A program made the position numbers and the translations under genes. Shown here piece after piece: positions 20,798 to 48,998 of a stretch of 64,000 nucleotides of DNA. The first letter of the stretch is position 1. Every line of letters begins with the position of its first letter. This DNA is from Dethiobacter sp. (lineage in GTDB: Bacteria > Bacillota > Dethiobacteria > DTU022 > UBA8154): NCBI GenBank assembly GCA_020725665.1, contig DYEO01000024.1, positions 17,408-81,407 on the forward strand, read 5' to 3'. A model generated the notes under the pieces. The model had not been told where the DNA came from. It saw only the letters and a list, made by a program, of their open reading frames with translations, and ran no database searches.

Positions 20798-20843
20798 GAA
20801 ATTGCTGGAGCCTAGAAAACTACATTTCGATGAGGGATGAGAA

Positions 20844-21068
20844 ATGGAATATATTACTGCGAAAGAAGCTGCTGAAAAATGGGGCATATCCCAACGGCGG
20901 GTGCAGGTTCTGTGTGAACAGGGCAGAGTTGATGGAGCCAAGCGCCTTGGCTGGGTATGGGCAATTCCTAAAGATGCTCCAAAACCAGCAGATGCAAGGT
21001 TTAAAAGAGAAGAAACCAGGACTAATGAAAAGAAGATAGATGCTAGGACAGGAGGGGTTAGGCAATGA
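20844..21068 (+). CDS. HTH DNA-binding protein (excisionase/MerR-like HTH_17) translationally coupled to Type III mod
   Basis: MEYITAKEAAEKWGISQRRVQVLCEQGRVDGA is a helix-turn-helix. Its stop overlaps the mod start (ATGA). A paralog lies at 36885..37055. Confidence 0.6.
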   Translation: MEYITAKEAAEKWGISQRRVQVLCEQGRVDGAKRLGWVWAIPKDAPKPADARFKREETRTNEKKIDARTGGVRQ

Positions 21069-24000
21069 GCGAAAAACTGCAACGCTTTACCAAACTTTTA
21101 AGGGACATGTTTGAGTTGGAGAAATCAGATCTTGACTTTGGCATATACCGCATCATGAATATCCGAAAAAATGAGATCAATAACTTCATTGAAAATACTC
21201 TTGCCAGTGAAGTTAATTCCATACTATCGAAATATGCTACCGACAACAGCCAGGTAAGAAAGCGTATTGAAGAAATTGAGAAGCAGTGTGAAAGCGTAGG
21301 GGTTAAGGTAGAGGACAGCAAGCTAAGGGAAGAATATGCCGAATATAAGGCGTTGCTTGCCTCCGGTACAGGAGTTGCCGAGCTGGAAAGTGATGTTTAT
21401 TCAGCTTTATATAACTTTTTCAGCCGTTACTATGATGAGGGAGATTTCATCAGCAAACGCCGCTACAAAGAAGGTGTTTATGCTATTCCCTATGAGGGGG
21501 AAGAAGTCAAACTTTACTGGGCCAACCATGACCAATACTATATCAAAACCAGTGAAAACTTCAGGGATTATTCCTTTAAGGTGGATGTACATGGAGAAAA
21601 GTATACGATTCATTTTAAGCTGGTTGACGCCAATACCGAGCAAAATAACAACAAAGAAAGTGATGACAAAAAGCGCGAATTTATTCTGCTGGATGAAAAC
21701 TTCCTGGAAGCGGAGGGTAATGAGCTTACAATAAAATTTGAATATCGTGTTCCTGCAAGTGAGCAGGATAGCGTAAACAAGCTGAAAGATAATTCTAAAT
21801 TAAATAAATCCGCCGTTGATAAAATTAAAGGCGCCGTTTCAGAAAATGCCGACTTAAAGCGCTTTGTCTGGGCCATAAACATGCCTGCTCCAACAGATAA
21901 AAATAAGACCCGCACAATTCTGGAAAAGCACCTGGAAACCTATGTTGCCAAGAACACCTTCGATTATTTTATTCACAAAGATTTGCGCGGTTTCTTGAAC
22001 AGGGAACTGGATTTTTACATAAAAGCCGAGATAATGCACCTGGACGACCTGGACACCGACAATGAAGTGAAAGTAAATGTCTACCTGGCCAAGGTGAAGG
22101 CCATTAAAAAGGTAGGCCGCACCATTATTGACTTTTTGGCGCAAATAGAGGACTTTCAGAAAAAGCTGTGGCTCAAGAAAAAGTTTGTGGTTGAAACAAA
22201 CTGGTGTATCACCCTTGATAAGATTGATGAGAGCTTCTATCCCGAAATAGCTGCAAATGATGCTCAACGGCAGGAATGGGTGGAACTGTATGCCATCGAT
22301 GAGATTGCCGGGGACTTGATGACAGAGGCTTATTCCAATCCGCTGACCGTAGATTTTTTAAAACAGAATAAAAACCTTGTGCTGGATACAAAGCATTTTA
22401 CAACAGAATTCAAGGAGAGGCTGGTTGCGAGCATTGACAATTTAGATGAGGAGACAAACGGCCTCTTAATTCACAGTGAAAATTTTCAGGCATTGAATTT
22501 GCTGCAGGAAAAGTATCGGGAAAAGATTTCTGGAATATATATTGATCCTCCTTATAATACAGATGCAACAGAAATTGTTTATAAAAATGGCTACAAAGAT
22601 AGTTCTTGGTGTTCTTTAATTAATGACAGGATGGCTATTGCAAAAAAACTTATGCATAAGGATGCTTGTGCTTGTACAACTATTGATGAATGCGAAGTCA
22701 ACAATCTTGCCTTTATAATTGGCCAAGTTATGGGAGGGTATATTCTTAGACCGGTAATTATTGAGTATAATCATCGCGGGCGGGTGAAAAGTAACTTTGC
22801 AATTACCCATGAATATGCTTTATGGGCTATTCCTCAAGGCAGAGATTTAATTACTCGCAAAAGAGAAACATCAGATGATATTAGAAGAAATCTAAGAAGA
22901 ACCGGTACAGATTCCACAAGACAAGCGTCACCTAAACAGTTTTACGGGATTGAAGTTGATAATGATACATTGGCTATTGTGGGTGTAACTGAACCTTTGC
23001 CTCTTGGTACTCCTATTCCAGAACATAATAACCCTAAAACAACTATGGTATGGCCGATTGATGAGCAAGGAGTTGAAAGAAGATGGTATTATGGAAGCGA
23101 AAGAGTTCTTATTGAAGCAACTGAGGGGACTGTTTGGGCTAAACGTATAAAAGGAGAAATACAGATACATTATCATCAAGATGGAAAACCCAAAATGAGA
23201 AAATCTGTTTGGGTAGGGAAATTATTAGATGCTAGTACATATGGTTCTGAATTACTGAATGATATTTTTGGTATGGCTAAAGCAGACTTTTCGTTTCCCA
23301 AAAGTATTTATGCTGTTAAAGAATGTTTGGAAGCAATGTCATATAATCCTAAAGCGGTATTTCTTGATTACTTCGCCGGCTCCGGTACAACAGGTCATGC
23401 AGTAATAAACCTCAACCGCGAAGACGGAGGCAATCGTAAATATATCCTTGTAGAAATGGGCAATTATTTCAACACAGTTACCAAGCCGAGGATCAAAAAG
23501 GTTATCTATGCTAAAGACTGGAAAGACGGCAAGCCACAGAACAGAAATACCGGTGTTTCACAGATTTTTAAATACATCCGTCTGGAAAGCTACGAGGATA
23601 CATTGAATAATATCGAGCTTAGGCGCACGCCTGAGCAGGAAAAGCAGCTGAGGATGGACACAAACTTCTTTAATGAGTATCTTATATCATATATGCTGGA
23701 TATTGAAAGCAGGGGCAGCCTCTTAAGCCTTGACCGATTTAAGGAGCCTTTTGCCTATAAAATGAAAATTGCCGAGAACAGCGAAACAAAAGAAACAATC
23801 ATTGATCTAGTGGAAACCTTTAATTACCTCCTTGGCCTTGCTGTTAAGAGACAAAAAGCTGCTGCCCGCTTTAATGCCGTCCCTGATGAGAAGGGTGGAT
23901 ATGAAAATGCAGTAATGCTCACAGAAGACAAGGAAGGAAAGTATATCTTTAAAACAGTGGAAGGCATTATGCCCAATGGGGATAAAGCTCTTGTCATCTG

Positions 24001-24208
24001 GCGCAGCCTTACCGATGATCTGGCAGCTGACAACGCAGCTTTAGACAGCTACTTCATTAAATATTGCGCTGGAGCTAAAGGTAAGGACTTTGATGTTATC
24101 TATGTCAATGGAGACAACAATTTAGAAAACCTCCGCAAGGACAACCAGCAGTGGAAGGTTCATTTAATCGAGCTTGAATTTAAGAAGAGAATGTTCGAGG
24201 AGGTGTGA
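21065..24208 (+). CDS. mod: Type III restriction-modification Mod (N6-adenine/N4-cytosine beta-class DNA methyltransferase) with about 480 aa N-terminal extension
   Basis: Motif IV IYIDPPYNT (about aa 495) precedes motif I FLDYFAGSGTTGHAV (about aa 790), the beta-class order typical of Type III Mod. It overlaps the res start. Confidence 0.8.
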   Translation: MSEKLQRFTKLLRDMFELEKSDLDFGIYRIMNIRKNEINNFIENTLASEVNSILSKYATDNSQVRKRIEEIEKQCESVGVKVEDSKLREEYAEYKALLASGTGVAELESDVYSALYNFFSRYYDEGDFISKRRYKEGVYAIPYEGEEVKLYWANHDQYYIKTSENFRDYSFKVDVHGEKYTIHFKLVDANTEQNNNKESDDKKREFILLDENFLEAEGNELTIKFEYRVPASEQDSVNKLKDNSKLNKSAVDKIKGAVSENADLKRFVWAINMPAPTDKNKTRTILEKHLETYVAKNTFDYFIHKDLRGFLNRELDFYIKAEIMHLDDLDTDNEVKVNVYLAKVKAIKKVGRTIIDFLAQIEDFQKKLWLKKKFVVETNWCITLDKIDESFYPEIAANDAQRQEWVELYAIDEIAGDLMTEAYSNPLTVDFLKQNKNLVLDTKHFTTEFKERLVASIDNLDEETNGLLIHSENFQALNLLQEKYREKISGIYIDPPYNTDATEIVYKNGYKDSSWCSLINDRMAIAKKLMHKDACACTTIDECEVNNLAFIIGQVMGGYILRPVIIEYNHRGRVKSNFAITHEYALWAIPQGRDLITRKRETSDDIRRNLRRTGTDSTRQASPKQFYGIEVDNDTLAIVGVTEPLPLGTPIPEHNNPKTTMVWPIDEQGVERRWYYGSERVLIEATEGTVWAKRIKGEIQIHYHQDGKPKMRKSVWVGKLLDASTYGSELLNDIFGMAKADFSFPKSIYAVKECLEAMSYNPKAVFLDYFAGSGTTGHAVINLNREDGGNRKYILVEMGNYFNTVTKPRIKKVIYAKDWKDGKPQNRNTGVSQIFKYIRLESYEDTLNNIELRRTPEQEKQLRMDTNFFNEYLISYMLDIESRGSLLSLDRFKEPFAYKMKIAENSETKETIIDLVETFNYLLGLAVKRQKAAARFNAVPDEKGGYENAVMLTEDKEGKYIFKTVEGIMPNGDKALVIWRSLTDDLAADNAALDSYFIKYCAGAKGKDFDVIYVNGDNNLENLRKDNQQWKVHLIELEFKKRMFEEV

Positions 24209-27200
24209 TGATGGGAGCAAAGAAGACCAAGAAAGCAAATAAAGCCATCAATCTCAATGATTGCCTGGTGCTCAATAAGTACTTCCTTTCCCTCTTTGGC
24301 AAAAGAGATTTCAGGGAACTGGCGGAAGACATGAGGTCTGCTGATCTGGAAGGGTATAATGAAGAGAACACCTCCTATTTCCATGAATTTATAGTACGCA
24401 AGTATGTTAAGCTGGGCTTTTTAAATAAGGACAAGCTGAAGGAATATGATGAAAACATCTTCCGTTATGTCCAGCATATCGGTGAGGGCCGGGGCGGGCT
24501 TACCCTAAAATATTTCCAGTATCTTGCTTTGCTTTTTACCGAAATGTATCTCGACAGGTATTTCCTGGATAGGGAAAACTTTGTTGCCGACTTAAATAAT
24601 TTCCTGCATGAATTCAATGCTGAAAGCGATGGTGAAACAATTTCGGATTATACACCGGACAGCTTGAACAAGCTAGCCTTTATGTGCGCTACAGGTAGCG
24701 GCAAGACGTTAATTATGCATGCTAATATCCTGCAATTCCAACATTACTTTAAGAGAGCGCAGGAATATAACAAAAGCTTGGCGCTAAATAAAATCATTCT
24801 TCTTACGCCCAATGAAGGTTTATCGCACCAGCACATTGAGGAAATGAAGCTTTCCGGCATCCGCTGCCGCCTCTTTGAAAAGGATACCCTACAGGAAAAA
24901 GACGGAGTGCTGGTCATAGATATCAACAAGCTGGAAGAACAGGGTAAGGTGAAGACAGTTTCTGTGGACAGTTTCGAGCAGAACAACCTTGTCCTGGTTG
25001 ACGAAGGGCACAAAGGGCTCTCGGGGGATGTGTGGTATGATTTTCGCAGCCGGTTGTCGGAAAATGGTTTTTCCTTCGAGTACTCAGCGACTTTTAAGCA
25101 GGCGATCAAGGAGGAAAAAACAAAGTCAGAGGCGGAGGCTCTTGCTCATCAGTACGGCAAGGCTATTATCTTTGACTATTCTTATAAGTACTTCTATAAC
25201 GACGGATATGGCAAGGAATACCGCATTTACAACCTGAAAGAGAGTCTTTCCAAGGAGCAGCAAGAGCTGTATTTAACGGGTTGCTTGCTCAGTTTTTATC
25301 AGCAAATGAAAATTTATCAGAGCGATAGAGGGGCCTTTGTCCCCTTCAATATTGAAAAACCGCTCTTAGTATTTGTTGGCAACAGTGTCAATAAAACCGT
25401 CAGCAAGGACGAGTTAACCGACGTGCAGGAAGTCCTGGCCTTTATTAACGGCTTTACAGCCAATAGAGAAAAGGCCGTAAGCCGAATCAAAATGTTGCTG
25501 GATGACAATACCGGGCTCCTTGATGAAAGAGGGCAGGAGCTGTTTTACGGCGATTTTTCCTATCTGCAAAATCTGTTTAAGCGAGATGCCGGCTCTGTTT
25601 ATGACGATGTGTTAAAAATCGTTTTTGAGGCAACTTCCACAGGCAGGCTGCACTTAGTAAATCTAAAGCAGTTGGGTGGAGAAATCGGTTTACGGGTCGG
25701 CAGCGACAATGAGTTTTTCGGGGTCATCAACGTTGGTGCTGGCGGCGACAGCGAGCTGATTAAGAATATTGAAAAAGGAAAGACCGGGATTGTTACCGAT
25801 GAAAACCAGTTTGAGAACGAGTCTCTGTTTAAAAAAATAAATGATAAAAATTCCAAGATTAATATACTTATTGGCTCTAAAAAGTTTACAGAAGGGTGGA
25901 ACAGCTGGCGGGTTTCCACCATGGGGCTGATTAACTTTGCCAAAGGCGAAGGCTCTCAGGCCATTCAGCTTTTTGGCAGGGGGGTAAGGCTTAAAGGTTA
26001 CGGAAACTGTCTCAAGCGCAGTTCCAAACTGGACTACCCTGTTGAAGTGCCAAGGTATATTAACAAAATAGAAACCTTAACTATATTTGGCGTAAAAGCC
26101 GATTATATGGCACAATTCAAAGAATATCTTGAAAAGGAAGATATGGATCTCAATGACTCCATCAGAGAGTTCAGGCTCCCTGTAGTAAGCCGTTTTCATG
26201 ATGTGAAGGATAAACTGAAGGTGATTAAGGTCAAGGACGGTATCAATTTCAAAAAACAATCGAAACGGCTAATCCTTACTACTCCTTCAGACGGCTTTAT
26301 GGACAACCTGGTCAAAAATAAAATCAAGATTGATTATAATGCTACCGTCCAAAGCCTTACCTCTACCAGGAGTGAAGATGTAAAATATCAAAAGGACGAG
26401 GCTGTATTGGAGCCATATCATATCGCATTTTTAGATGTGGATAAGCTTTATGCTGAGCTGCTGCAATACAAAAACCAAAAGGCTTATTACAATATCAGCA
26501 TCGAAAAGTCATTATTGCCGGAAATACTTAAGACTAAAGGCTGGTACACTTTGTTTGTCCCCAAAGCGCTGATGGAAATTGACAGTTTTGATAAAATCGG
26601 CAGAATCAATGATATATGTGTGATGCTTCTGAAAAACTATCTGGACAGGTTTTATAAATATCATAAGGCAGAGTGGGAAGCGCCGCACCTGGTTTACGGA
26701 GACTTAAAATCCAGTGATAAGAATTTTATCGACGAGTATAATATTACTCTTTTTAACAAAGAGAAATTCGACGAATTTGCAGAGCTGATTGAGGGAATCA
26801 GAGAGGCTTTGGAAAAAAACAGGCGTTTGGACAAGTACGAGGATAAGCATTTGAATTTCCGCTACTTTGATTTTTACAGCCACCTTTACACTCCCCTAAT
26901 CTCTATAGATAAAGGAATCCGTATCGAGGTTTCGCCGGTAAGCCTCAACAGCGATGAAAAGTTGTTTATTGATAGGCTGAAGAAATATTGCGATGATAAT
27001 CCATCTGCTTTTATCGAAAAGAGGCTGTACCTGCTCCGCAATAAGAGCAAAGCTGGTATTGGCTTTTTTGAAGCAGGAAATTTTTACCCGGACTTTATTA
27101 TGTGGATTGCCGAAGATGACAAGCAGTATATTACCTTTATTGACCCAAAAGGCATTATGATGCTGGAAAAGAATATTAATAATCCTAAAATCCAATTTTA

Positions 27201-27414
27201 TAAAACCATCAAGGAAAAGGAAGCCCAGTTGCAGCCATCCTGTACAGAAAAACAGATAATTTTGAATTCCTTCATCATTTCCGGCACACCGGCTGCAGAT
27301 GCCAGCGCTCATTTTGGAGTTAGGAGACCTGAGTTTGAAAGCAGAAATGTGCTTTTTCTGGAGGATGATGATTGTATAGAGAAGATGATGAGCAAGATAT
27401 GTCTGGAATGCTAA
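24205..27414 (+). CDS. res: Type III restriction enzyme Res subunit (SF2 helicase plus PD-(D/E)xK nuclease)
   Basis: Walker A CATGSGKTL, DEAH-like VLVDEGHKG, SAT motif, and LFGRGVR motif VI. The C-terminal YPDF...TFIDPKG is a PD..DxK endonuclease motif. Confidence 0.8.
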   Translation: MMMGAKKTKKANKAINLNDCLVLNKYFLSLFGKRDFRELAEDMRSADLEGYNEENTSYFHEFIVRKYVKLGFLNKDKLKEYDENIFRYVQHIGEGRGGLTLKYFQYLALLFTEMYLDRYFLDRENFVADLNNFLHEFNAESDGETISDYTPDSLNKLAFMCATGSGKTLIMHANILQFQHYFKRAQEYNKSLALNKIILLTPNEGLSHQHIEEMKLSGIRCRLFEKDTLQEKDGVLVIDINKLEEQGKVKTVSVDSFEQNNLVLVDEGHKGLSGDVWYDFRSRLSENGFSFEYSATFKQAIKEEKTKSEAEALAHQYGKAIIFDYSYKYFYNDGYGKEYRIYNLKESLSKEQQELYLTGCLLSFYQQMKIYQSDRGAFVPFNIEKPLLVFVGNSVNKTVSKDELTDVQEVLAFINGFTANREKAVSRIKMLLDDNTGLLDERGQELFYGDFSYLQNLFKRDAGSVYDDVLKIVFEATSTGRLHLVNLKQLGGEIGLRVGSDNEFFGVINVGAGGDSELIKNIEKGKTGIVTDENQFENESLFKKINDKNSKINILIGSKKFTEGWNSWRVSTMGLINFAKGEGSQAIQLFGRGVRLKGYGNCLKRSSKLDYPVEVPRYINKIETLTIFGVKADYMAQFKEYLEKEDMDLNDSIREFRLPVVSRFHDVKDKLKVIKVKDGINFKKQSKRLILTTPSDGFMDNLVKNKIKIDYNATVQSLTSTRSEDVKYQKDEAVLEPYHIAFLDVDKLYAELLQYKNQKAYYNISIEKSLLPEILKTKGWYTLFVPKALMEIDSFDKIGRINDICVMLLKNYLDRFYKYHKAEWEAPHLVYGDLKSSDKNFIDEYNITLFNKEKFDEFAELIEGIREALEKNRRLDKYEDKHLNFRYFDFYSHLYTPLISIDKGIRIEVSPVSLNSDEKLFIDRLKKYCDDNPSAFIEKRLYLLRNKSKAGIGFFEAGNFYPDFIMWIAEDDKQYITFIDPKGIMMLEKNINNPKIQFYKTIKEKEAQLQPSCTEKQIILNSFIISGTPAADASAHFGVRRPEFESRNVLFLEDDDCIEKMMSKICLEC

Positions 27415-27436
27415 GAACCGGCGAGCATGGAGAGGC

Positions 27437-28084
27437 ATGGGGCTAAATGAGCTAAACGAGGTTTGTAATGTGGAGCGTGATGAGTTTATCGTAGCAAAGA
27501 GGTGCGGAAAAGTGGCTGTTAATTATAAAAAGTGCCCTAAATGCGGGTCTAAGAATTCGGTTAAAATTGTATATGGCATGCCAAGTTTTAAGCTTTTCCA
27601 GGAAGGCGAAGCCGGAAAGGTAAAATTGGGTGGTTGTTGCATTATAGAGGGCAGTCCTGAATACCACTGCAAGGATTGTAACAATGAGTGGAACCGGGAG
27701 CAGGTGCTTGACATCGCATACGGTCAGATCAAAGGGCTTAAAGCATCAGTGGGTGGTTACTTCGGTGGTTATTATCGTGTAACTATTGATTTGACAAATC
27801 TTAAAACTACATGGCTGTTCAACGAGGGCGGTTCTGAAGAAGCCAGTACAAGATCCATTCGAACAAAAACAGCAGAAGAATTCATTAAGTGTTTAAAAGA
27901 GATTAACCTGCTGAATTGGAAAGGTAAGTACATAGAACCCGGAGTCTGTGATGGGACCCAATGGAGCATTGAAATAATTACTGACGAGAGAACCGTCAGA
28001 AAATATGGTAGCAATAAGTTTCCGGAAGAATGGAAACAGTTTTGCAAAATTATTAAAAAAATAACCGGAAAAGAATTCAGGTGA
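27437..28084 (+). CDS. Hypothetical zinc-ribbon protein
   Basis: CPKCG ... HCKDCN four-cysteine zinc ribbon near the N-terminus; the remainder is unassigned. Starts 20 nt after res and overlaps the next gene. Confidence 0.35.
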   Translation: MGLNELNEVCNVERDEFIVAKRCGKVAVNYKKCPKCGSKNSVKIVYGMPSFKLFQEGEAGKVKLGGCCIIEGSPEYHCKDCNNEWNREQVLDIAYGQIKGLKASVGGYFGGYYRVTIDLTNLKTTWLFNEGGSEEASTRSIRTKTAEEFIKCLKEINLLNWKGKYIEPGVCDGTQWSIEIITDERTVRKYGSNKFPEEWKQFCKIIKKITGKEFR

Positions 28085-28734: not shown

Positions 28735-29231
28735 CGGGTGATGTTATCATGGTAAAAGGCAATATTACATGCAGCTACGGATGCTGTTCGCAGGATTTGG
28801 CTCAAAACAGGGGGAATTGCCCTGTCTGCAATAATAAAGGTGAAGCAGTAGGAAAGGTTACCGTTGAGCATTTAGTGACCGATGACAATCGAAAAGCCGT
28901 AGAGGGAGACCAATATAGGATCTGTTTAAATGAGGAATGTGATGTTGTCTACTATAACGTAGATAACGGCGTAAAATTCCTGAAGAATCAAATTAAAGTT
29001 CCTATCTGGTTTAAGAAAGATGCGACCCCCAAATACGCGTGCTACTGCAGCAAAGTTACAGAAGAACAAGTTATAGAGGCCGTACTTAAGCATGGAGCGA
29101 AAACGGTACAAGAAGTGAATGTTATTACCGGTGCAATGAAAAATTCCAATTGCAAAGAGAATAATCCAATGGGCGTTTGCTGCCATAAGATCATTCAGGA
29201 AGCAATAAATAAAGGATTAGCAATGAAATGA
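28707..29231 (+). CDS. Cysteine-rich protein with C-terminal BFD-like [2Fe-2S]-binding-type domain
   Basis: N-terminal CSYGCCS...CPVCNN. The C-terminal CYCSKVTEEQV...ITGAMKNSNC...GVCCHK resembles the BFD-like/NifU-like Cys pattern. The start may be ATG 28749. Confidence 0.3.
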   Translation: MLENQKSKVAGDVIMVKGNITCSYGCCSQDLAQNRGNCPVCNNKGEAVGKVTVEHLVTDDNRKAVEGDQYRICLNEECDVVYYNVDNGVKFLKNQIKVPIWFKKDATPKYACYCSKVTEEQVIEAVLKHGAKTVQEVNVITGAMKNSNCKENNPMGVCCHKIIQEAINKGLAMK

Positions 29232-29264
29232 TTGTTATTACGCTTAAAATTAGAAACAAGGATG

Positions 29265-29338
29265 TAAGACTGGAATAGTAAAGCAAAAAAACACCCCGTA
29301 CATCTTTAAAAATACGATGTTCGGGGATGTTCGGGGTG
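29265..29338. terminator. Bidirectional terminator hairpin between convergent genes
   Basis: AACACCCCGTACATC ... GATGTTCGGGGATGTTCGGGGTGCT stem-loop with A-run upstream and T-run downstream. Confidence 0.4.
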
Positions 29339-29848
29339 CTATTTTTTCAAAAAATCTCCGGTAGCATTTAGTGGAGCTTCAAGTCTGTAGCCTCTGCTTT
29401 TCAATATCTGAAATTTGAAATCCATTAATTCCGGTGGTACATAAAGTTCCCTTGCGGCCCTGAAAAAATTCATTTCTGCGTCATTTATCAGTTTAATAAC
29501 CTCACAATCAGGCAAGAGGATTTCAGCGGCGAAAATGTTTGCTTCCCTTTCCGGCTTTGAAGACATATCATAGCTGATAAGCTCCTGGGCCTGGGGATTC
29601 ATTATGGCCAAGTGTCTGTGGAAGCGGTCATGGCCGATTTCGTGAGCACATACTAATCGTTTGGCAGGACTGTCCAATTCATTGTTAATGCAGATATATC
29701 GGCTTCGCCTTGTGTATATGTAAATCCCTTTAAGCCTGCCGAGCGGCCTGTAGAGAACATTAATATTAAGACAATCGGCAATCTCAAAAGGGTTTCGTGT
29801 TTTATGCTTTTGGATCAACCTCTCGGCTTCTCTCAAAATAAATTCCAT
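29339..29848 (-). CDS. immA: ImmA/IrrE family metallopeptidase (anti-repressor protease)
   Basis: HEIGH zinc motif (VCAHEIGHDRFH). It lies downstream of and adjacent to the XRE repressor on the same strand. ATG 29848 has RBS GGGGTG. Confidence 0.8.
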   Translation of the reverse strand: MEFILREAERLIQKHKTRNPFEIADCLNINVLYRPLGRLKGIYIYTRRSRYICINNELDSPAKRLVCAHEIGHDRFHRHLAIMNPQAQELISYDMSSKPEREANIFAAEILLPDCEVIKLINDAEMNFFRAARELYVPPELMDFKFQILKSRGYRLEAPLNATGDFLKK

Positions 29849-29864
29849 ACTTTTCACCCCGCAG

Positions 29865-30314
29865 CTAATCAGTTGGTGGATTCTTGCTGCCTTTATTTTT
29901 ACGGGCACCATACTTTTTGGCTTTTTTCTTTGAGTCAAAGTATATTTCGGTTAATACCTCAAAAAGCGCATCTTTATCTTCTTCTGATAATTCTCCGCCG
30001 GCAAATAAACATTTTGTAGTTTCAATGAATTTTTTTGCTTCGCTTTTTCCCCTCAATTTATCTTCTGCTTTAGCTTCCTCTAGAAATATTTCTTCCTTAG
30101 TCATTGCAATGCTTTCGCTATCGTCTGTCAGGAAATCTGAAGATACGTTAAAGAAACCGGCGATTTTATCAATTAGTCCTGCCTCCCGTGGAAAGCGCTC
30201 ACCGTTTTCATAGTATACCAAAGCCCGTCTTGTAATCCCGAGCTGCTCTGCAAAATCCTTCTGAGAAATGCCTGCCCTTTTACGTAATAATCTAATTTTT
30301 TCGCCAAACTGCAT
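29865..30314 (-). CDS. immR: XRE-family HTH transcriptional repressor (ImmR-like)
   Basis: HTH_3 motif IRLLRKRAGISQKDFAEQLGITRRALVYYENGERFP. ATG 30314 has RBS GGAGGTG. Confidence 0.8.
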   Translation of the reverse strand: MQFGEKIRLLRKRAGISQKDFAEQLGITRRALVYYENGERFPREAGLIDKIAGFFNVSSDFLTDDSESIAMTKEEIFLEEAKAEDKLRGKSEAKKFIETTKCLFAGGELSEEDKDALFEVLTEIYFDSKKKAKKYGARKNKGSKNPPTD

Positions 30315-30329
30315 TTGATAAAACACCTC

Positions 30330-30445
30330 CGGTAATATTTTGGCTATAATGTTCACTTATTATACAATAAGAGAACAAATTTATTGACAAAAATATTGTT
30401 CACATATTATAATACAAGAGAACAAAAAATATGTCAATAATTTTG
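30330..30445. promoter_or_regulatory. Divergent promoter/operator region with two palindromic operator copies
   Basis: Two copies of TGTTCAC-N(about 15, AT-rich with TATAAT)-GAGAACAAA (TGTTC...GAACA inverted repeat), each overlapping a -10-like TATAAT. Located between immR and the divergent 30463 gene. Confidence 0.5.
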
Positions 30446-30462
30446 AAAAGAGGTGAAAACAG

Positions 30463-31008
30463 ATGAGTTCTGAAAAAATGGCGTTAGCTGTGTTGAAACG
30501 AGGATTAGCTTCCATGCACATTGATGAAGAGCGGGTATATCATAAAACAAAATTGTTGCTGAAAATATACCGGGATGTGGTTTGGTGTATTGAAGACAGG
30601 ATATGCGAGATTGAAGCAGAGTATTATGCCATGGGAGGCAATCGTCTGGCTGAAGCCTTGGATTACCTGGATGATTATGACCCCAATATCAATAAGAAAG
30701 ACCTTGAAGAAAAGCTGTGCTCATTATTGAAAAGCAAGTGGCTTATTGAAATTGTGGACAAGGCATTGTTAAAAATAAAGAATTATCCTGATTATGGGGA
30801 CTTGTATTTCAATATCCTTTACAAGCAGTACATTGTAAAATACAGGTATTCGGAAAAGGAAATTATCGAATCTCTCAATTGTGAGAGGACAACCTTTTAT
30901 AAAAGAAAAAAGGAAGCTATAAATTTAATGGGCCTTGCCATATGGGGATATGTGATACCTGCTCTAAGGGATATATGGCAGACGGAATGTGAACTAAATA
31001 CGAACTGA
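30463..31008 (+). CDS. Hypothetical protein (possible sigma-factor region-4-like HTH)
   Basis: C-terminal ERTTFYKRKKEAINLMG resembles sigma region 4. Transcribed divergently from immR. Confidence 0.3.
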   Translation: MSSEKMALAVLKRGLASMHIDEERVYHKTKLLLKIYRDVVWCIEDRICEIEAEYYAMGGNRLAEALDYLDDYDPNINKKDLEEKLCSLLKSKWLIEIVDKALLKIKNYPDYGDLYFNILYKQYIVKYRYSEKEIIESLNCERTTFYKRKKEAINLMGLAIWGYVIPALRDIWQTECELNTN

Positions 31009-31112
31009 TAAAGGACAAAATACCTACATAACAAGTACTGAATACGAACTGCCAGGGTGTTACGATAATTATGATGGGTAGCTGCATACTTTAAAGCCCT
31101 CGATTTCAGGCT

Positions 31113-31140
31113 TACACGGCCATGAATCGATGGCTTTTTT
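31113..31140 (+). terminator. Rho-independent terminator
   Basis: GCCATGAATCGATGGC hairpin followed by TTTTTTTT. Confidence 0.4.
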
Positions 31141-31179
31141 TTATGCCCCAAAACTTATCCAAAATTGCACATAGGTACA

Positions 31180-31216
31180 AAAAAGGGTCGCACGAAAAAT
31201 CGTGCGGCCCTTTTTT
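31180..31216. terminator. Bidirectional terminator hairpin
   Basis: AAAAAAGGGTCGCACGaaaaatCGTGCGGCCCTTTTTT. Confidence 0.45.
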
Positions 31217-31329
31217 GCTGCCGGAAAGGGGACATCCGTGAAGCGTTTGTTTTGGTACTACATCCGGTATCCTTGATTTTCTCTGTTTTGCTAAGGCCTG
31301 CAAACAAAGCAAAACGGAGGGAATGAAAG

Positions 31330-31734
31330 ATGAAAGAATACAAAATAAGAGTGAAAAATGAAATTGTTACTGTAAGCAAGGAAATATATACTGCCTATTA
31401 CAAGATGAGAAGACGTGAAAGGTACATAGAGGAAATCAGCATAAAGAACAATCTTTCTTATGACCAGCTAGTCGAGCTGGACTATCCTATCGAGCAGAAA
31501 ATGTGTGATCCGCAACTTCTTGTTGAAGACGTTATTATTGAAAAAATCATGCTTGAGAAATTGATGCTGGCGCTTGAAGAATTGACAGATTATGAGCGGT
31601 TAATAATTAACGAACTGTTCTTTAATGGCAAAAGCGAAAGAGAGCTTGCAGATTCTATGAAGCTGCCAAGAACAACTTTGCAGTCTCGCAAAAACAGCAT
31701 TATCAGCAAACTTAAAAAAATCATTGAAAAATAA
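31330..31734 (+). CDS. Sigma-70 family RNA polymerase sigma factor (small ICE-type; region 4 present)
   Basis: C-terminal DYERLIINELFFNGKSERELADSMKLPRTTLQSRKNSIISKLKK is a region 4 HTH. Confidence 0.6.
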   Translation: MKEYKIRVKNEIVTVSKEIYTAYYKMRRRERYIEEISIKNNLSYDQLVELDYPIEQKMCDPQLLVEDVIIEKIMLEKLMLALEELTDYERLIINELFFNGKSERELADSMKLPRTTLQSRKNSIISKLKKIIEK

Positions 31735-31744
31735 AAATTTATTT

Positions 31745-31795
31745 CGTCCACCCCTTCATTTTTTCGGCTTAAAAAGTGAAGGGGTATTTTTATCC
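31745..31795 (+). terminator. Rho-independent terminator
   Basis: CCACCCCTTCA-ttttttcggcttaaaaag-TGAAGGGGT hairpin followed by ATTTTT. Confidence 0.45.
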
Positions 31796-32298
31796 CTTAT
31801 TGCTCTTTGAAAAATTGCCGGCAAAGGCTCGCTTGTAATCCTTAAAGCCGTACATATCCAACAGCTCAAATACGTTAGCTGTTCAGCCGCTGAAACGGGA
31901 AGCGACATTGGTAAACACGCCAAGACAGCCTGCGGGCATTTTTTGCCCGTCAAAACGATGGCATCAAAGGCTATGAGCGATAAATGTTTGACCATAAAAC
32001 AATCTGTGGTGGATTGTTTCGCCAGGACCTGAACAGCCTACAATGATACTCCTGCATAGTCGAGGTTGAGTCCCAGAGTGCAGCCCGGAGGTTCTCGGGG
32101 AGGTGGAATTCCTGTGATACCTGCTGACCACAGGTAGTTTGAGCTGTTGCCCCGGTGCTTGGGAAGCAGTGGCAAATAGAGCACAGGATGAAGATAGAGA
32201 ACAAGCGTAACCGCTTTGATATCAGAAACTATGCAGCGGAACTTAAAGTCCGCTGCATCCTTGTGGTATTAAAGCAAAATGTAAAGGGGGATTTAACC

Positions 32299-32460
32299 AT
32301 GTCACAAACTCAAATAACCAATGAAATCAAGTATAAAATAGCGCTTTCGCTGCTGAACAGCCTGCTTGAAAAAGGCCTTATTACTCTTTCTGAATTGAAA
32401 GAAATTGACAGATTAAATCGGAATTCATTCACTCCAGCCCTGGCGGAGGTATATGTGTAA
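32299..32460 (+). CDS. Small hypothetical protein upstream of serine recombinase
   Basis: RBS AAAGGGGG lies upstream of ATG 32299 (MSQTQITNE...). The ORF track extends to 32155 but no RBS is seen there. Confidence 0.3.
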   Translation: MSQTQITNEIKYKIALSLLNSLLEKGLITLSELKEIDRLNRNSFTPALAEVYV

Positions 32461-32543
32461 AAACACTTGATATGGCTGGATTTGTGTGGTACTGTGTGTT
32501 GCTGATAAAGCATCATGTACTGAAAAGTGAAAGGAGGAAGCGT

Positions 32544-34145
32544 ATGCCAAAAGTAAGAGTCATCAAGCCAATCAATTGCATGGAAGCAGAAGCTGAAGCT
32601 CCGAAACTGCGGGTGTGTGCATACTGCCGGGTCAGCTCGGACCACACCGGGCAGCTGCAATCCTTTTCAGCACAGGTGGAGTACTACACCCGGCTGATAG
32701 AAAGCAACGATGCCTGGACTTTTGCCGGAATTTATGCGGACGAAGGCATCAGCGGCACCGCCAAAGACAAGAGGGATGAGTTTCTAAGGCTCATTGCCGA
32801 CTGTGAAGCCCAAAAGGTGGACATGGTCATTACCAAGTCCATATCCAGGTTTGCAAGAAACACCGCCGACTGCATTGAGACGGTGAGAAAGCTGAAAACG
32901 CTGGGGATTGCCGTTTTTTTCGAGAAAGAAAACATCAACACCCTGTCTGCTGAAAGTGAGCTGCTGATGACGGTTTTAAGCTCCATTGCCCAGGAGGAAT
33001 CCATATCCACCTCCAAAAACAACCGGTGGGCGATACAAAAAAGGTTTATGAAAGGTGAATGGAAGCCTTCTTACCTTCCCTACGGCTATAAGAAAGACAA
33101 GGACGGAAGAATCATCATCAATGAAGAAGAAGCCGCTATTGTAAAAAGGATTTATACTGACTACCTGAACGGGAAAGGAACGTACGTCATCGCAAAAGAG
33201 CTCACGGAAGAAGGAGTTCCAACAAGAAAAGGGGCGGAAGCCTGGGGAGAAAATGTGGTGAAGGAAATCCTGACCAATGAAAAATACTACGGAGACATAC
33301 TCCTTCAGAAGACCTTTACCACCGACACATTGCCCTTCCGGCGAAAGCGGAACCGGGGACAAAAACAGTGCTACTATATCGCCAACGATCACGAACCCAT
33401 TATTTCAAAAGAGCAGGCTGAACGAGTCAGGGAGATCATGGAGCAGCGAAAAACCGAAAAAGCCATGGTGGATACCGACCCCCGAAAATATAACCAGCGT
33501 TATCCGTTCAGCCGCAAAATCCAGTGCGGCAAATGCGGAAGCACTTTCAAAAGGCAAATCATATACAAGGGCAAACCCTACCAGACAGAGCAGTGGTGCT
33601 GCACCAAGCATATCATGAATCGGGCGGAATGCGGCATGGCAGCCGTCAAGGACAAGCACATCAAAGCTGCATTCATCAATCTATATAACAAGCTGAAAAG
33701 CAATTATGACAAAATATTAACCCCCCTGGCCGAGGATTTGAAAAAGCTTCACTGCGGCAGGGAGTATGAATCCCAGGTCAAGGAAATCAATAAAAGAATA
33801 ACGGAACTTACCGAACAGAGTCATGTATTAAGTAGACTGAGGTCGAAAGGATATCTTGACTCTGTTCTTTTTATAGAGCAAAGCAATCTGATCACCAAGC
33901 AGCTCCACGAAGCCAAAAAGCAGCGAAGCAAGCTGTTCGAATATAACGGATTTAATGATGAGGCCGCCAGGACGGAGGAACTGATCGCTTTCCTCAAAAA
34001 GCAGGATGATCTGATAGAGAGCTTTGATGAAGACATTTTTTCACTGATGGTAGAAAGGATCATTGTAAAATCCAAGCTTGAAATTGCCTTCCGTCTGATC
34101 AATGGACTGGAGCTTCCGGAAATCATCGGAGAGGAAGTGGGCTAA
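32544..34145 (+). CDS. Large serine recombinase (resolvase/invertase catalytic domain plus recombinase domain plus zinc ribbon)
   Basis: Catalytic serine motif AYCRVSSDHTGQLQSFSAQ, recombinase domain, and Cys-rich zinc ribbon. RBS AAGGAGGAAG lies upstream of ATG 32544. Confidence 0.9.
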   Translation: MPKVRVIKPINCMEAEAEAPKLRVCAYCRVSSDHTGQLQSFSAQVEYYTRLIESNDAWTFAGIYADEGISGTAKDKRDEFLRLIADCEAQKVDMVITKSISRFARNTADCIETVRKLKTLGIAVFFEKENINTLSAESELLMTVLSSIAQEESISTSKNNRWAIQKRFMKGEWKPSYLPYGYKKDKDGRIIINEEEAAIVKRIYTDYLNGKGTYVIAKELTEEGVPTRKGAEAWGENVVKEILTNEKYYGDILLQKTFTTDTLPFRRKRNRGQKQCYYIANDHEPIISKEQAERVREIMEQRKTEKAMVDTDPRKYNQRYPFSRKIQCGKCGSTFKRQIIYKGKPYQTEQWCCTKHIMNRAECGMAAVKDKHIKAAFINLYNKLKSNYDKILTPLAEDLKKLHCGREYESQVKEINKRITELTEQSHVLSRLRSKGYLDSVLFIEQSNLITKQLHEAKKQRSKLFEYNGFNDEAARTEELIAFLKKQDDLIESFDEDIFSLMVERIIVKSKLEIAFRLINGLELPEIIGEEVG

Positions 34146-35126
34146 ATGGCGCAAAGACATATGCCTTTTGGCTATAAAATCATAGACGGAGCTGTAACCA
34201 TCGAACCGGATAAAGCAGACCTGGTCAGAAAAATGTTCAATGATTTTATATCGGGCATATCCTTGAAGCAGATGGCAAAGGACCTGACAGAAATGAAGGT
34301 TCCCAATGCCAACGGAAAGCCCTCCTGGAATCACGGCTCCATCGGAAAAATTTTGAGCAACTGCAAATACGTCGGAAGTGATTTCTATCCTGCCATTATC
34401 CCGGAGGAAGTATTCAATGCCGCCAACAGGCTCAGAGAAGAAAAGAACACCCGGCTTGGCAGAAATGTCAATTACTATGCCAACGGCATCGCCAGCACTT
34501 ATCCCTTCAGCGGCAGATTGATATGCGGGGAATGCGGAAGTGTTTTCAAAAGGTACACCGAACACCATGACAAAAATAAAAAATGCAACTGGAAATGCAA
34601 ACGGTATATCGTTGACAACAGGGTATGCTGCAAAAGCGGCGTGGTTGATGACAAGCAGCTTGAAGCTGCCTTTATACAGATTATCAACCGGGTGATGGAG
34701 AACCCTGAAATGATAGAAAAGCGTCCAGCAGTTAATGCTGTGACTGAGAGTGTTGAATTAAGAAAGATAAAATTGCAAATATCCAACGGATTCGATCAAA
34801 ACGGCTTGGAACCGTCGGAAATGGCACAGCTGCTATTCAAAAGAGCTGCAGAACAATATCGAATCTCTCAAATAGATGACTTTGAATACAAAACCAAGAA
34901 ATTGAAAGCGGTGCTTGAGAACTGTAAGCCCATTAAAGCATTTGATGAGGCTTTATTCAAAGCGACCATCAAAAGCATAACAGTGGAAATCACCGGGCAG
35001 CTCCGGTTTGAACTGATCAATGGAGTGATGCTAAGCACCTCATATACACTACGGAGAAAAGGAGGAAAGGCCCATGGCGATGGGACAAAGAACAGTATCG
35101 GTAATCCCTGCAAATCCGATTTATGA
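34146..35126 (+). CDS. Recombinase-domain protein lacking the N-terminal catalytic resolvase domain
   Basis: Aligns with the recombinase/zinc-ribbon/coiled-coil portion of large serine recombinases (LICGECGSVFKRY zinc ribbon) but has no YCRVS catalytic region. The TAAATG stop/start overlaps the upstream recombinase. Confidence 0.6.
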   Translation: MAQRHMPFGYKIIDGAVTIEPDKADLVRKMFNDFISGISLKQMAKDLTEMKVPNANGKPSWNHGSIGKILSNCKYVGSDFYPAIIPEEVFNAANRLREEKNTRLGRNVNYYANGIASTYPFSGRLICGECGSVFKRYTEHHDKNKKCNWKCKRYIVDNRVCCKSGVVDDKQLEAAFIQIINRVMENPEMIEKRPAVNAVTESVELRKIKLQISNGFDQNGLEPSEMAQLLFKRAAEQYRISQIDDFEYKTKKLKAVLENCKPIKAFDEALFKATIKSITVEITGQLRFELINGVMLSTSYTLRRKGGKAHGDGTKNSIGNPCKSDL

Positions 35127-36708
35127 TTTTAAGGAAAAAGCAAAGATAAAAAAGCTGAGAGTGGCTGCCTACTGCCGGGTCAGTACGGAGCTGGAGGAGC
35201 AGCAGTCCAGCTACCAGGCGCAGGTGGATTATTATACGGCGGAGATTATGAAAAACCCAGGCTGGAAGTTTGCAGGCATCTATGCTGATGAGGGCATATC
35301 CGGCACCAGCACAAAAAACAGGACAGGGTTCAATAAATTGATTGAAGACTGCATGGCAGGCAAGATTGACCTGGTGCTGACAAAATCCATCAGCCGTTTT
35401 GCAAGAAACACCCTTGACTGCATTCAATACATACGGAAACTGAAAGAAAAAAACATCGGCGTGTTCTTCGAAAAAGAAAATGTCAACACCCTGGACAGCG
35501 CTGGAGAATTTCTCATCACCATCCTCGGAAGCCTTGCCCAAGAAGAAAGCCGTTCCTTAAGCACTAACACAAGGTGGGGTGTCGTCCGCCGGTTCGAGAA
35601 GGGACAGGTTATGGTCAATCACAACAAGTTTTTAGGCTATACGAAGAATGAGGCCGGAGAGCTGGTGATTGTACCCGAAGAAGCAGAAATTGTAAGATTG
35701 ATTTTCAGATTGTACTTAGAGGGGCAAAGCATTACCCAAATTAAAAAATACTTAGAGGAAAATGGAATTAAAACCGTTACCGGAAAAAACCAATGGTCTA
35801 CAACCACCATCAACAACATGCTCTCAAATGAGAAGTACATGGGAGATGCCCTGCTGCAAAAAAGCTACACCGTAGACTACCTCACTAAGAAAAGAGTTAA
35901 AAATAATGGAATTGTTCCGCAGTATTATGTGGAGGACAGCCATCCGGCCATCATTTCCAAAGACTTGTTTCACCGGATACAGGAAGAAAAAGCACGCCGG
36001 GCTAACATTAAAAAGAGTGCTGAAAAAAGAACCAAAACCGACAGCGGGAAATACAGCTCAATATATGCTCTCACCGAATTATTGATATGCGGGGAGTGCG
36101 GCAAGCCTTATAGACGGGCATCCTGGACAGCATACAGTGAGAAAAGGATTGTCTGGCGGTGCTTAAACAGGCTGGAGTACGGGAAAAAACACTGCCAAAA
36201 GTCTCCGACCATTGATGAAGATGTTTTGCATAGAGCCATCATGGATGCTTTCAATTCACTCATACAGGATAAGGGAGATTTTGTGGACACTCTCCATTCA
36301 AACATTCAGCTGGTGATGAGCAACCGGGCGAAACGGATGGACATAGCAAAAATTGAGGAACGGATTGCGGAATTGAAAAATGAGATGATAGGCTTCGTAG
36401 AGGAAAATGCAAGATGTGGGGCAGATAATACGGACTTTGACGAGTACTATGCTAAAATCTCCGCCGAATTGAAAGAACTTCAGAAGATAAAAACACAATA
36501 TACAGAACAGCAAGCCAGGCAAGACAGCTTCCAGAGAAGGATCGAGGATATGAAGAAGTTTCTGAACGCCGCAGACTGTAAATTATCAAATTTTGATAAC
36601 CAGCTTGTCAGGCAGCTTATACAAAGCATCAAGGTCGTGTCAAGGGATAAGATTCTCATAAAATTCAAGTCGGGCTTAGAGATAGAGCAAGAGCTGAGTA
36701 AAAAATAG
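35074..36708 (+). CDS. Large serine recombinase (second full-length copy)
   Basis: AAYCRVSTELEEQQSSYQAQ catalytic motif and LICGECGKPYRR zinc ribbon. RBS GGAGGAAAGG precedes the start. Confidence 0.9.
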   Translation: MAMGQRTVSVIPANPIYDFKEKAKIKKLRVAAYCRVSTELEEQQSSYQAQVDYYTAEIMKNPGWKFAGIYADEGISGTSTKNRTGFNKLIEDCMAGKIDLVLTKSISRFARNTLDCIQYIRKLKEKNIGVFFEKENVNTLDSAGEFLITILGSLAQEESRSLSTNTRWGVVRRFEKGQVMVNHNKFLGYTKNEAGELVIVPEEAEIVRLIFRLYLEGQSITQIKKYLEENGIKTVTGKNQWSTTTINNMLSNEKYMGDALLQKSYTVDYLTKKRVKNNGIVPQYYVEDSHPAIISKDLFHRIQEEKARRANIKKSAEKRTKTDSGKYSSIYALTELLICGECGKPYRRASWTAYSEKRIVWRCLNRLEYGKKHCQKSPTIDEDVLHRAIMDAFNSLIQDKGDFVDTLHSNIQLVMSNRAKRMDIAKIEERIAELKNEMIGFVEENARCGADNTDFDEYYAKISAELKELQKIKTQYTEQQARQDSFQRRIEDMKKFLNAADCKLSNFDNQLVRQLIQSIKVVSRDKILIKFKSGLEIEQELSKK

Positions 36709-36794
36709 CATTACCGCGAAGAGACAACCGCCAAACTGTGAAAAAGCAGAATGGTGGTTGTTTTATTCATGTATAGTACTTGCTTGAATGGTGC

Positions 36795-36875
36795 CTCGCA
36801 GAAATATGTTCACAAAATTCATTGTTTTCATTCGTTTCTTCGTATATAATATTATTTGGAAAATATTTCTGCGAG
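36795..36875. promoter_or_regulatory. 13-bp inverted repeat pair bracketing a -10-like element upstream of the HTH leader gene
   Basis: CTCGCAGAAATAT (36795-36807) and ATATTTCTGCGAG (36863-36875), with GTATATAAT between them. Located 10 nt upstream of ATG 36885. Confidence 0.35.
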
Positions 36876-36884
36876 ATATAAAGA

Positions 36885-37055
36885 ATGGATTATATTACGG
36901 CAAAAGAAGCAGCAGAAAAATGGGGAATATCCCAGCGCAGAGTTCAGCTTTTATGTGAGCAAGGTCGAGTTGCGGGGGCGGTTCGGTTAGGATGGGCATG
37001 GGCAATTCCAAAAGAAGCGGACAAGCCTGCAGATGCTCGCACAAGGAGGAAATAA
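36885..37055 (+). CDS. HTH DNA-binding protein (paralog of 20844..21068) translationally coupled to gajA
   Basis: MDYITAKEAAEKWGISQRRVQLLCEQGRVAGAVRLGWAWAIPKEADKPADAR, about 85% identical to the leader upstream of the Type III mod. Its TAA overlaps the ATG of the next gene (TAAATG). It is not in the ORF track because it is under 60 aa. Confidence 0.6.
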   Translation: MDYITAKEAAEKWGISQRRVQLLCEQGRVAGAVRLGWAWAIPKEADKPADARTRRK

Positions 37056-42825: not shown

Positions 42826-42837
42826 GGAGATGTTGTA

Positions 42838-48988: not shown

Positions 48989-48998
48989 TTGATAAGGG

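Follow-up and report, generated by a model that had tools for sequence, protein, structure and literature searches.

Why should two small, closely related helix-turn-helix (HTH) genes stand at the head of two unrelated defence operons in a single stretch of bacterial DNA? The stretch in question, 64,000 nucleotides (nt) of Dethiobacter sp. (assembly GCA_020725665.1, contig DYEO01000024.1, positions 17,408 to 81,407 of the forward strand; below, the window), carries one such gene, HTH-A, before a Type III restriction-modification (R-M) operon and another, HTH-B, before a Gabija system. Upstream of members of the family to which both belong we find a conserved candidate promoter with an operator-like motif in its spacer, a feature that is new here. 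On balance we favour the view that the HTH protein is a negatively autoregulated winged-helix repressor, and that promoter, operator and gene together would form a portable expression head for the cargo behind them.

Two paralogous leader genes and a family promoter

Both HTH open reading frames (ORFs) are those proposed by the first-pass annotation of the window, and the HTH-A stop codon overlaps the mod start codon (ATGA) as described there. The overlap reported for HTH-B and gajA, however, proved to be an abutment: the TAA of HTH-B is followed at once by the ATG of gajA, with a gap of 0 nt. The AGGAGG Shine-Dalgarno sequence of mod lies inside the HTH-A tail, and that of gajA inside the HTH-B tail. 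This geometry makes translational coupling of the HTH gene to the downstream gene plausible, an idea qualified by the strong AGGAGG ribosome-binding site that mod and gajA each have of their own. Over the 52-residue core the two proteins are identical at 45/52 positions (86.5%) and the genes at 115/156 nt (74%), with third codon positions matching in 23 of the 52; 25 codon differences are synonymous and 7 non-synonymous, and the Nei-Gojobori proportions of synonymous and non-synonymous differences are pS 0.79 (saturated) and pN 0.106. These values bear out the earlier estimate of ~85% protein against ~70% DNA identity, and suggest that HTH-A and HTH-B are old paralogues, both under purifying selection. 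The 200 nt 5' of the two genes are 29% identical in an ungapped comparison, that is, unrelated. Given these flanks and the saturated synonymous sites, a recent segmental duplication that includes flanking DNA, which had been named as a possible refutation of a portable module, is ruled out. Only one of the seven amino acid differences, V22L, falls within the predicted recognition helix (residues 17-26), and with recognition helices this similar each protein likely recognises both operators.

The identity of the operons behind the two genes is clear. The 1047-aa (amino acid) mod ORF and the following res matched the PADLOC models MTase_III (1e-223) and REase_III (1e-187), with Pfam matches to N6_N4_Mtase and ResIII; GajA (5e-177), GajB (2e-170), QatA (2e-148), QatB (3e-35), QatC (4e-117) and QatD (6e-77) were found behind HTH-B. 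The HTH protein was rejected as a part of either Gabija or Type III R-M, since no PADLOC model matched it and the same HTH heads other systems.

A sequence search returned 141 close homologues, all small (54-98 aa), from Firmicutes-type sources and named merely 'helix-turn-helix' or 'DNA-binding protein'. A profile search put the family at 6,653 clusters at 50% identity with E<=1e-3, and at 2,460 with E<=1e-10. The invariant core residues are Y3, T5, W13, R18, R19, V20, Q21, L23, C24, W39, A40 and P42. By sequence the copies in the window are borderline members of Pfam HTH_17 (PF12728; 25.8 bits for HTH-A and 25.1 for HTH-B, against a gathering score of 27) and of HTH_59 (PF20038; 23.6 and 23.7 bits, also under the gathering score). 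Some relatives exceed the HTH_17 gathering score (L035, 35.6 bits; L078, 30.5; L038, 28.1), and many homologues carry a precomputed PF12728 annotation. Searches with HTH-A and HTH-B gave no match in NCBIfam or to the XRE-type Pfam family HTH_3, and a sequence search against solved structures also gave none. An AlphaFold2 model (predicted local distance difference test score, pLDDT, 87.7) has the topology beta-alpha-alpha-beta-beta of a two-helix winged domain. Its best Foldseek matches were lambda Xis (TM-score 0.70-0.76, root-mean-square deviation 1.7-1.9), HK022 Xis, Pukovnik Xis, BldC (TM-score 0.67-0.69), the DNA-binding domain of the MerR-family protein NmlR, RacA and Tn916 Xis, all with weak E-values (>=0.05), the domain being so small. 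The family is predicted from this model to have an excisionase/MerR-like winged-helix fold (Xis/MerR N-terminal type), so the label 'HTH_17-type' given earlier holds for the predicted fold but not for the score. We found no account of the family or of its promoter motif in the literature, subscription journals being mostly outside our coverage; the family is apparently uncharacterised and is very abundant in Firmicutes. Four of the proteins (P0121, P0122, P0125 and P0136) consist of 4-7 tandem 52-residue HTH domains joined by short K/P-rich linkers, an arrangement pointing to cooperative binding at several DNA sites, in the manner of Xis or BldC filaments.

In species-representative genomes at least 550 relatives were found, and the best 80 loci were analysed. 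Their aligned upstream regions contain a common promoter of the form TTG(c/a)(t/a)a - TT(A/G)TTCG - N6 - CG - NN - TATAAT, with a 17-nt spacer. The spacer motif TTCG-N6-CG was present in 67/82 copies (82%), mostly 50-60 nt before the ATG; among random 160-nt windows drawn from these loci its frequency was 2.5%. The full motif occurred 82 times in 2.0 Mb, 66 times directly upstream of an HTH gene. Since the loci had been gathered by protein similarity alone, conservation of the promoter is independent evidence. In many loci the site is a palindrome, TATTCG-N6-CGAATA, overlapping the -10 element. With a near-consensus -35 and -10 at 17-nt spacing an activator would not be required; in the HTH-B clade the -35 is weak (TTGTTT). 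A conserved operator-like motif within the family's own promoter lends independent support to a repressor role, which the first-pass annotation had suggested, with binding and repression themselves still predictions.

How, then, is HTH-A expressed? Two independent HTH plus Type III R-M cassettes (L014 and L017) have the full family promoter directly upstream of the HTH gene; homology of the window to them starts at 20815, just past their -10, and what precedes HTH-A is the remnant of a 5' untranslated region (UTR) element (Table 1). Two genes thus appear to have been inserted between the family promoter and HTH-A. A family-type promoter at 19087..19115, without an adjacent HTH gene, stands 62 nt upstream of the ORF 19177..20262. 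Among sigma-70-like sites in the interval 18-37 kb it ranks second (11/12 positions), and the 64-kb window holds 2 motif matches against 0.17 expected. The operon 19177..20262 - 20303..20797 - HTH-A - mod - res probably starts at this site. In L017 HTH-A, mod and res (~20815-27391) are found together again in other surroundings, which fits a portable HTH-headed cassette.

The inverted repeat that had been noted at 36795-36875 is indeed present, with two 17-nt arms, 94% complementary, flanking the HTH-B promoter at about -62..-46 and +2..+19 as estimated from the position of the -10. Only a 9-nt core (CAGAAATAT) is conserved, and within the HTH-B clade only; no compensatory changes were seen in the comparison of that clade.

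Genes downstream of the family in other genomes

The first-pass annotation had regarded the small HTH gene as the first cistron of unrelated defence systems, a pairing that recurs far beyond the window. Tabulating downstream neighbours, as it had proposed, showed that among the best 80 loci 69 copies are stand-alone small genes and 11 are N-terminal domains of larger proteins. Dam is the fusion partner in 3 loci and Fic in 2; the remaining partners are a C5 methyltransferase, AraC, a 1649-aa FtsK/STAND protein and three further proteins, two of which were scanned and gave no additional Pfam domain. The HTH domain is also fused to ~900-aa methyltransferases; methyltransferases with an autoregulating N-terminal HTH exist, and the methyltransferase fusions of the family recall them. 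Of 65 next genes, 62 share the strand of the HTH gene; 41 of these 62 lie within 30 nt of it, and 23 overlap it.

At least 21 of the 65 next genes encode DNA methyltransferases by Pfam (12 HsdM, 6 N6_N4, 2 C5 and 1 Dam), and PADLOC assigned 11 Type I and 6 Type III methyltransferases in a summary made up mostly of redundant methyltransferase models, with no per-locus table. Other next genes matched ResIII (4), GHKL ATPases (3), NOV_C, BpuJI_N, AAA_13 and EcoEI_R_C, and 2/65 were Gabija-like (AAA_15 + OLD-TOPRIM). Systems met downstream include Type I, II and III R-M, Gabija-like ATPases, cyclic-oligonucleotide-based anti-phage signalling (CBASS), Hachiman, Avs4, prokaryotic Argonaute (pAgo) and PDC-M48. 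Metagenomic contexts comprise an HTH-headed type II CBASS behind a prophage-like recombinase module, an N6_N4 methyltransferase/AAA_5 set that in two distinct chromosomal settings comes right after a rumA-like gene, and an HTH gene heading a C5 methyltransferase and a GHKL ATPase.

OmpR-type response regulators, however, make up 13 of the 65 next genes. A histidine kinase gene follows the regulator in 4/4 loci checked, and ABC-2 or FtsX/MacB transporter genes follow the kinase in the 3/3 loci followed further; this order is the layout of peptide-antibiotic resistance modules. The HTH family is not defence-specific. Upstream of 64 copies we found 6 RumA-like genes, 5 serine recombinases and 4 XRE regulators, and almost no defence families. 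The proposal of a module that travels with defence cassettes is partly supported: defence families are common downstream and almost absent upstream, but response regulators are frequent too and HTH-B is not tied to Gabija (see below).

Proposed autoregulation of the cargo

Regulation of defence islands is a current open question, and few regulator families are known (C proteins, BrxR/CapW, CapH/P, RptR, CapK/S). According to the autoregulatory model, the HTH protein would bind TTRTTCG-N6-CG in the 17-nt spacer of its promoter and repress that promoter, while same-strand cargo downstream would be co-transcribed with the HTH gene and often translationally coupled to it. In a cell that lacks the repressor, as just after conjugative transfer into a naive host, the strong promoter would be active at first; as the repressor built up, expression would drop to a low steady level, keeping down the cost or toxicity of cargo such as R-M and Gabija. 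HTH-A, cut off from its own promoter by the two inserted genes, would probably be fed from 19087-19115, and HTH-A and HTH-B should each recognise both operators and so co-regulate both cassettes. The presence of the same or nearly the same HTH before Gabija+Qat, Avs4, pAgo+Aga, Hachiman, PDC-M48 and CBASS supports the expression head. The family offers a testable candidate operator in TTCG-N6-CG. If the model is true, the HTH gene would serve as a marker for new defence systems in Clostridia, found by looking downstream of it, and, in the engineering of Gram-positive bacteria, as a compact expression cassette that regulates itself, and it would explain how costly Gabija, Avs, pAgo and R-M systems are tolerated on transfer.

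Several points weigh against the model. DNA binding and the sign of regulation are inferred, and another factor could recognise the promoter motif. The spacer motif is partly palindromic in many loci, the promoter of HTH-B itself included. HTH-A has no operator directly upstream, and by sequence both proteins fall just under the Pfam gathering threshold. The Xis-like fold and the proximity to recombinase genes and the attachment (att) site in the HTH-B clade would suit an architectural or recombination role too. Finally, the 80 loci are those most similar to HTH-B, so that proportions are biased; neighbour genes come from simple ORF calls, and the Pfam counts are lower bounds taken from top-25 family lists.

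C proteins of Type II R-M systems are XRE-type helix-turn-helix dimers that bind operators in their own promoter, leading to timed, limited expression in a new host. C proteins such as C.PvuII and C.Esp1396I are, like the family HTH, small DNA-binding leaders of mobile R-M operons. They stand before the endonuclease gene and act on it as activators as well as repressors (PMC12255303). The family HTH differs in its predicted Xis/MerR-like winged-helix fold, which is not the XRE-type (HTH_3) five-helix fold. It usually stands before a methyltransferase gene (HTH-A before mod, a pseudogene described below before hsdM) and not before an endonuclease gene, it also heads non-R-M cargo, and its conserved promoter-embedded motif differs from C-boxes. 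RptR (RMS-proximal transcriptional regulator) of E. coli, a 79-aa bZIP-like helical dimer found in Gammaproteobacteria, is the first-gene repressor of a Type I R-M defence island and binds repeats of the palindrome TAGCTA; protein and binding site are conserved across many genomes (PMC12255303). Both RptR and the family HTH are small first-gene regulators with a conserved site, repression by the latter being predicted, and by analogy RptR would be its closest functional analogue. Judged from the published description of RptR, the family HTH differs in fold, motif (TTCG-N6-CG), phylum and broader cargo. It also resembles the BrxR/CapW and CapK/CapS class functionally; in BrxR/CapW, CapH/CapP and CapK/CapS, however, a WYL domain, protease or kinase couples expression to DNA damage or infection, whereas the 52-residue family HTH has no sensor domain. 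With the Xis/HTH_17 superfamily (lambda Xis, Tn916 Xis, BldC, MerR N-terminal domain) it shares the predicted fold of two helices and a beta wing, but most family members lie away from recombinase genes and have their own promoter motif and operon-leader position. In fold, binding site and gene position the family is outside the controller, RptR, BrxR/CapW and CapK/CapS families.

A bolder version of the model, which we regard as rather unlikely, makes the HTH gene with its promoter a universal, cross-recognising plug-in head on Firmicutes mobile elements, such that one resident copy would silence every incoming or co-resident HTH-headed cassette. Its premise is that all members keep the same recognition helix and TTCG-N6-CG, with a naive host receiving the expression burst. 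Defence and peptide-resistance cargo on unrelated elements would then form a single regulon borne by mobile genetic elements. As the outward-facing last gene of integrative conjugative elements (ICEs) that target a rumA-like gene, the head may in addition act as a homology or att-proximal handle by which islands beside that gene are captured into the ICE, and could couple expression of cargo or transfer genes to the integrated versus excised state.

At MerR-activated promoters the spacer is typically 19-20 nt, and the 17-nt spacer of the family counts against the next alternative, that the HTH protein is a positive factor: either a MerR-like spacer activator or an AlpA/Q-like antiterminator letting RNA polymerase read through the cargo. 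The conserved site does share its place between -35 and -10 with the sites of MerR regulators and with the AlpA binding element (PMC9371919), the -35 of the HTH-B clade is weak, and a portable head for arbitrary cargo would profit from antitermination. Most family promoters, however, are near consensus. AlpA is a Q-like protein, the N-terminal part of which forms a ring in the RNA exit channel (PMC9371919); it is far larger, and the 52-residue domain has no comparable part, nor an effector-binding or dimerisation domain. An AlpA-like antiterminator was judged unlikely for this difference in size and kind, and we consider a positive factor of either sort improbable.

The end of the conjugative element and its flank

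From position 1 to ~45.9 kb the window is an ICE. Transfer genes (VirB4-like ATPase, M23 peptidase, ParM-like protein, MobL relaxase, Toprim protein, VirD4/TraG coupling protein and RadC) are followed by HTH-A and the Type III R-M operon, then by genes for PRiA4_ORF3, M78 peptidase, sigma-like and SHOCT proteins and by the three recombinase genes, which begin ~11 kb downstream of HTH-A; HTH-B, Gabija and QatABCD complete the element to its right end (Table 1). Homology of 98% to L091 ends at 45936, and the right-end sequence also follows the cargo in L002, L003, L036 and L087. Rightward of this sequence the window aligns with the 3' end of intact genes for RumA-like U5-methyltransferases (H-V-E-x-V-V-L-M..stop), for example in L018 (7590-7700); a rumA-like rRNA/tRNA U5-methyltransferase gene thus harbours the ICE in its 3' end. 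Integration of the ICE into an HTH gene is ruled out, as the right end (45911-45936) lies in this rumA-like 3' end. A tblastn search of the window with the RumA-like protein of L018 gave no match to the 5' part of rumA that would mark the left end; this end is presumably located before position 1 of the window.

HTH-B is the last conserved gene of the ICE and reads out into a variable cargo slot that extends to the right attachment-site (attR) junction. Sister elements (L002, L003, L081 and L083) are ~94% identical to the window over 29.1-37.06 kb, and the homology ends at HTH-B codon 52-53. The 56-aa variant of HTH-B always has recombinase genes upstream and Gabija (+Qat) downstream, while an identical 59-aa variant heads either a PDC-M48-type set or Hachiman; the cargo of L002 is Avs4 (2410 bits) and that of L003 a class II pAgo with Aga nuclease. 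What HTH-B accompanies in this element family is the recombinase end of the ICE, not Gabija. Hotspots of defence cargo are well known from SXT ICEs (hotspot 5), P2/P4 prophages and integron cassettes. The slot of this element likewise has a fixed position in near-identical elements and takes interchangeable Gabija+Qat, Avs4, pAgo, Hachiman or PDC-M48; it differs in lying between a conserved outward-reading regulator gene and the attR junction, within a rumA-like gene, of serine-recombinase ICEs, and members of the regulator family head cassettes elsewhere too. Pipolins are further defence-carrying mobile elements (PMC11551731). An HTH gene that heads interchangeable cargo at the end of ICEs targeting a rumA-like gene would help to locate a defence hotspot.

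Such a position calls to mind a recombination directionality factor (RDF). In this alternative the protein, Xis-like, would bind near the element end as a directionality or architectural factor and steer excision and integration by the serine recombinases, or the exchange of cassettes. Excisionases are its best fold matches, and the link to serine recombinases noted at first pass is confirmed for the HTH-B clade, in which the gene lies between the recombinase genes and the slot; a prophage-like element also has the HTH directly after serine recombinase genes, the stop codon of the 59-aa variants lies within ~55 nt of an att-like site, and Avs4 of L002 stands between two att-like copies. As a general function, however, recombination directionality, which had been proposed alongside repression, is unlikely: a recombinase gene is immediately upstream in just 5/64 copies, most copies head R-M or two-component operons, and some are fused to methyltransferases or Fic. 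The conserved motif is in the family's own promoter, away from the att site and the element end at 45911-45936. The left breakpoint of the slot is imprecise, varying from codon 53 to ~70 nt past the HTH stop. Moreover, known RDFs of large serine recombinases act via protein-protein contact and not by DNA bending. We assign this alternative a low probability. A precise site-specific junction at codon 52 was also considered and ruled out, since the 59-aa variants share ~70 nt past the stop and the breakpoints vary.

Equally improbable is a homology handle, in which ~160-220 bp of HTH gene and promoter would serve capture or swapping of cassettes by homologous recombination, with HTH-headed cassettes downstream of a rumA-like gene being captured into, or exchanged between, ICEs and regulation secondary: the homology of 94%-identical elements does stop at the end of the HTH core, resident islands next to the rumA-like gene are HTH-headed (L016, L018, L101, L102 and the pseudogene at 46063), and the core is common where cargo tail and ribosome-binding site differ, yet the protein is under strong constraint while paralogue DNA of ~74% identity with saturated third positions is a poor substrate for recombination, a mosaic crossover pattern is not seen inside the core, and other breakpoints fall past the gene.

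Table 1. Positions of the leader genes, candidate regulatory sites, operons and element end in the 64,000-nt window
Feature	Position	Strand	Description
Family-type promoter without adjacent HTH gene	19087..19115	+	TTGCCA-ttaTTCGtagtttCGAa-TATAAT; perfect motif match
Remnant of 5'-UTR element before HTH-A	20815..20843	+	AGAAAACTACATTTCG..GAGGG; -35, operator and -10 missing
HTH-A gene	20844..21068	+	74 aa; 52-aa predicted winged-helix core and 22-aa tail
Type III R-M	21065..27414	+	mod 21065..24208; res 24205..27414
Three tandem large-serine-recombinase genes	32472..36708	+	32472..34145, 34146..35126, 35074..36708; Pfam Resolvase, Recombinase, Zn_ribbon_recom
Inverted repeat	36795..36875		arms CTCGCAGAAATATGTTC (36795-36811) and GAAAATATTTCTGCGAG (36859-36875), flanking the HTH-B promoter
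HTH-B promoter	36822..36850	+	-35 TTGTTT; 17-nt spacer with operator-like TTCG-N6-CG (tcaTTCGtttcttCGta); -10 TATAAT
HTH-B gene	36885..37055	+	56 aa; 52-aa core and tail TRRK
Gabija	37056..40821	+	gajA 37056..39083; gajB ~39004..40821, start of gajB uncertain
QatABCD	40855..45747	+	shares the cargo slot with Gabija
ICE right end (attR-like) and rumA-like 3' remnant	45911..45979	+	TTATCTGTTTCACACGCTCAA at 45911-45936, then ..HIEVVVSLKRKHSS* at 45935-45979
HTH pseudogene (third copy)	46063..46236	+	tblastn 44% identity, E 4e-6; four in-frame stops
Type I R-M	46317..52217	+	hsdM 46317-47903; hsdS 47900..48988; hsdR 48999..52217

Several further observations concern the slot and other variable parts of the element. 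In L002 another att-like copy, followed by a rumA-like remnant of its own, lies 55 nt downstream of the HTH stop codon; direct att-like repeats (8235 and 13283) flank its Avs4, each followed by a different rumA-like 3' remnant, suggesting accretion at the rumA-like site, or imprecise excision there, as the way in which cargo was gained. In the 59-aa variants (L002, L036, L081-L090) the conserved ~70 nt after the HTH stop (..TTTTTGTGGTTGATTATAACGTGATTATAGATGGAATT..) look like a second outward-facing promoter before the cargo; this stretch is absent from the window, where gajA directly follows the HTH core. In L046 (Desulfotruncus alcoholivorax) an insertion of ~4.85 kb separates the HTH gene from the last recombinase gene; it is flanked by a ~84-bp duplication of the recombinase 3' end (2804-2887 and 7738-7821), and the HTH is truncated or diverged after codon 42. 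Within mod, a stretch of ~750 nt (22609-23361) is the only place where the near-identical ICEs L009, L010 and L017 lose homology; it is presumably the target-recognition domain, Type III specificity having been swapped between 93-97% identical elements.

A 283-nt segment (28856-29138) is absent from L002 and L010, and left of ~29.3 kb (~29139-29330) the sister elements diverge, L091 carrying a C5 methyltransferase, NgoFVII-type endonuclease, Vsr and Z1, L081 a transposase and L092 chromosomal genes. The region around 29 kb looks like a second variable region of the element. Next to it lies the M78 peptidase gene (29339-29938, minus strand), the orthologue of which is adjoined in sister elements by an XRE-type regulator gene, forming an ImmA/ImmR-like pair. 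Two overlapping divergent consensus promoters (12/12 and 11/12 positions) lie at 30384-30437, ~450-500 nt from the M78 gene, and this region is probably the induction switch of the ICE.

Beyond the ICE, a third, decayed HTH copy, overlooked by the first-pass annotation, forms the head of a resident Type I R-M operon. The hsdM gene has a premature in-frame stop at 46494-46496, both hsdS and hsdR look intact, and inactivation of the cassette seems to be under way. Orthologous intact HTH plus Type I R-M cassettes are present in L016 and L018, in L018 directly after the intact rumA-like gene. Further to the right the window encodes a protein with a GmrSD N-terminal domain (52275-54095; Type IV restriction-like), an AbiEi-like antitoxin (59307-59903) and a second VirD4/TraG coupling protein, N-terminally short and apparently a fragment (62844-63890). 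The interval 56.9-62.9 kb is 91-93% identical to L023, where it lies upstream of that locus's own HTH and Type I R-M genes.

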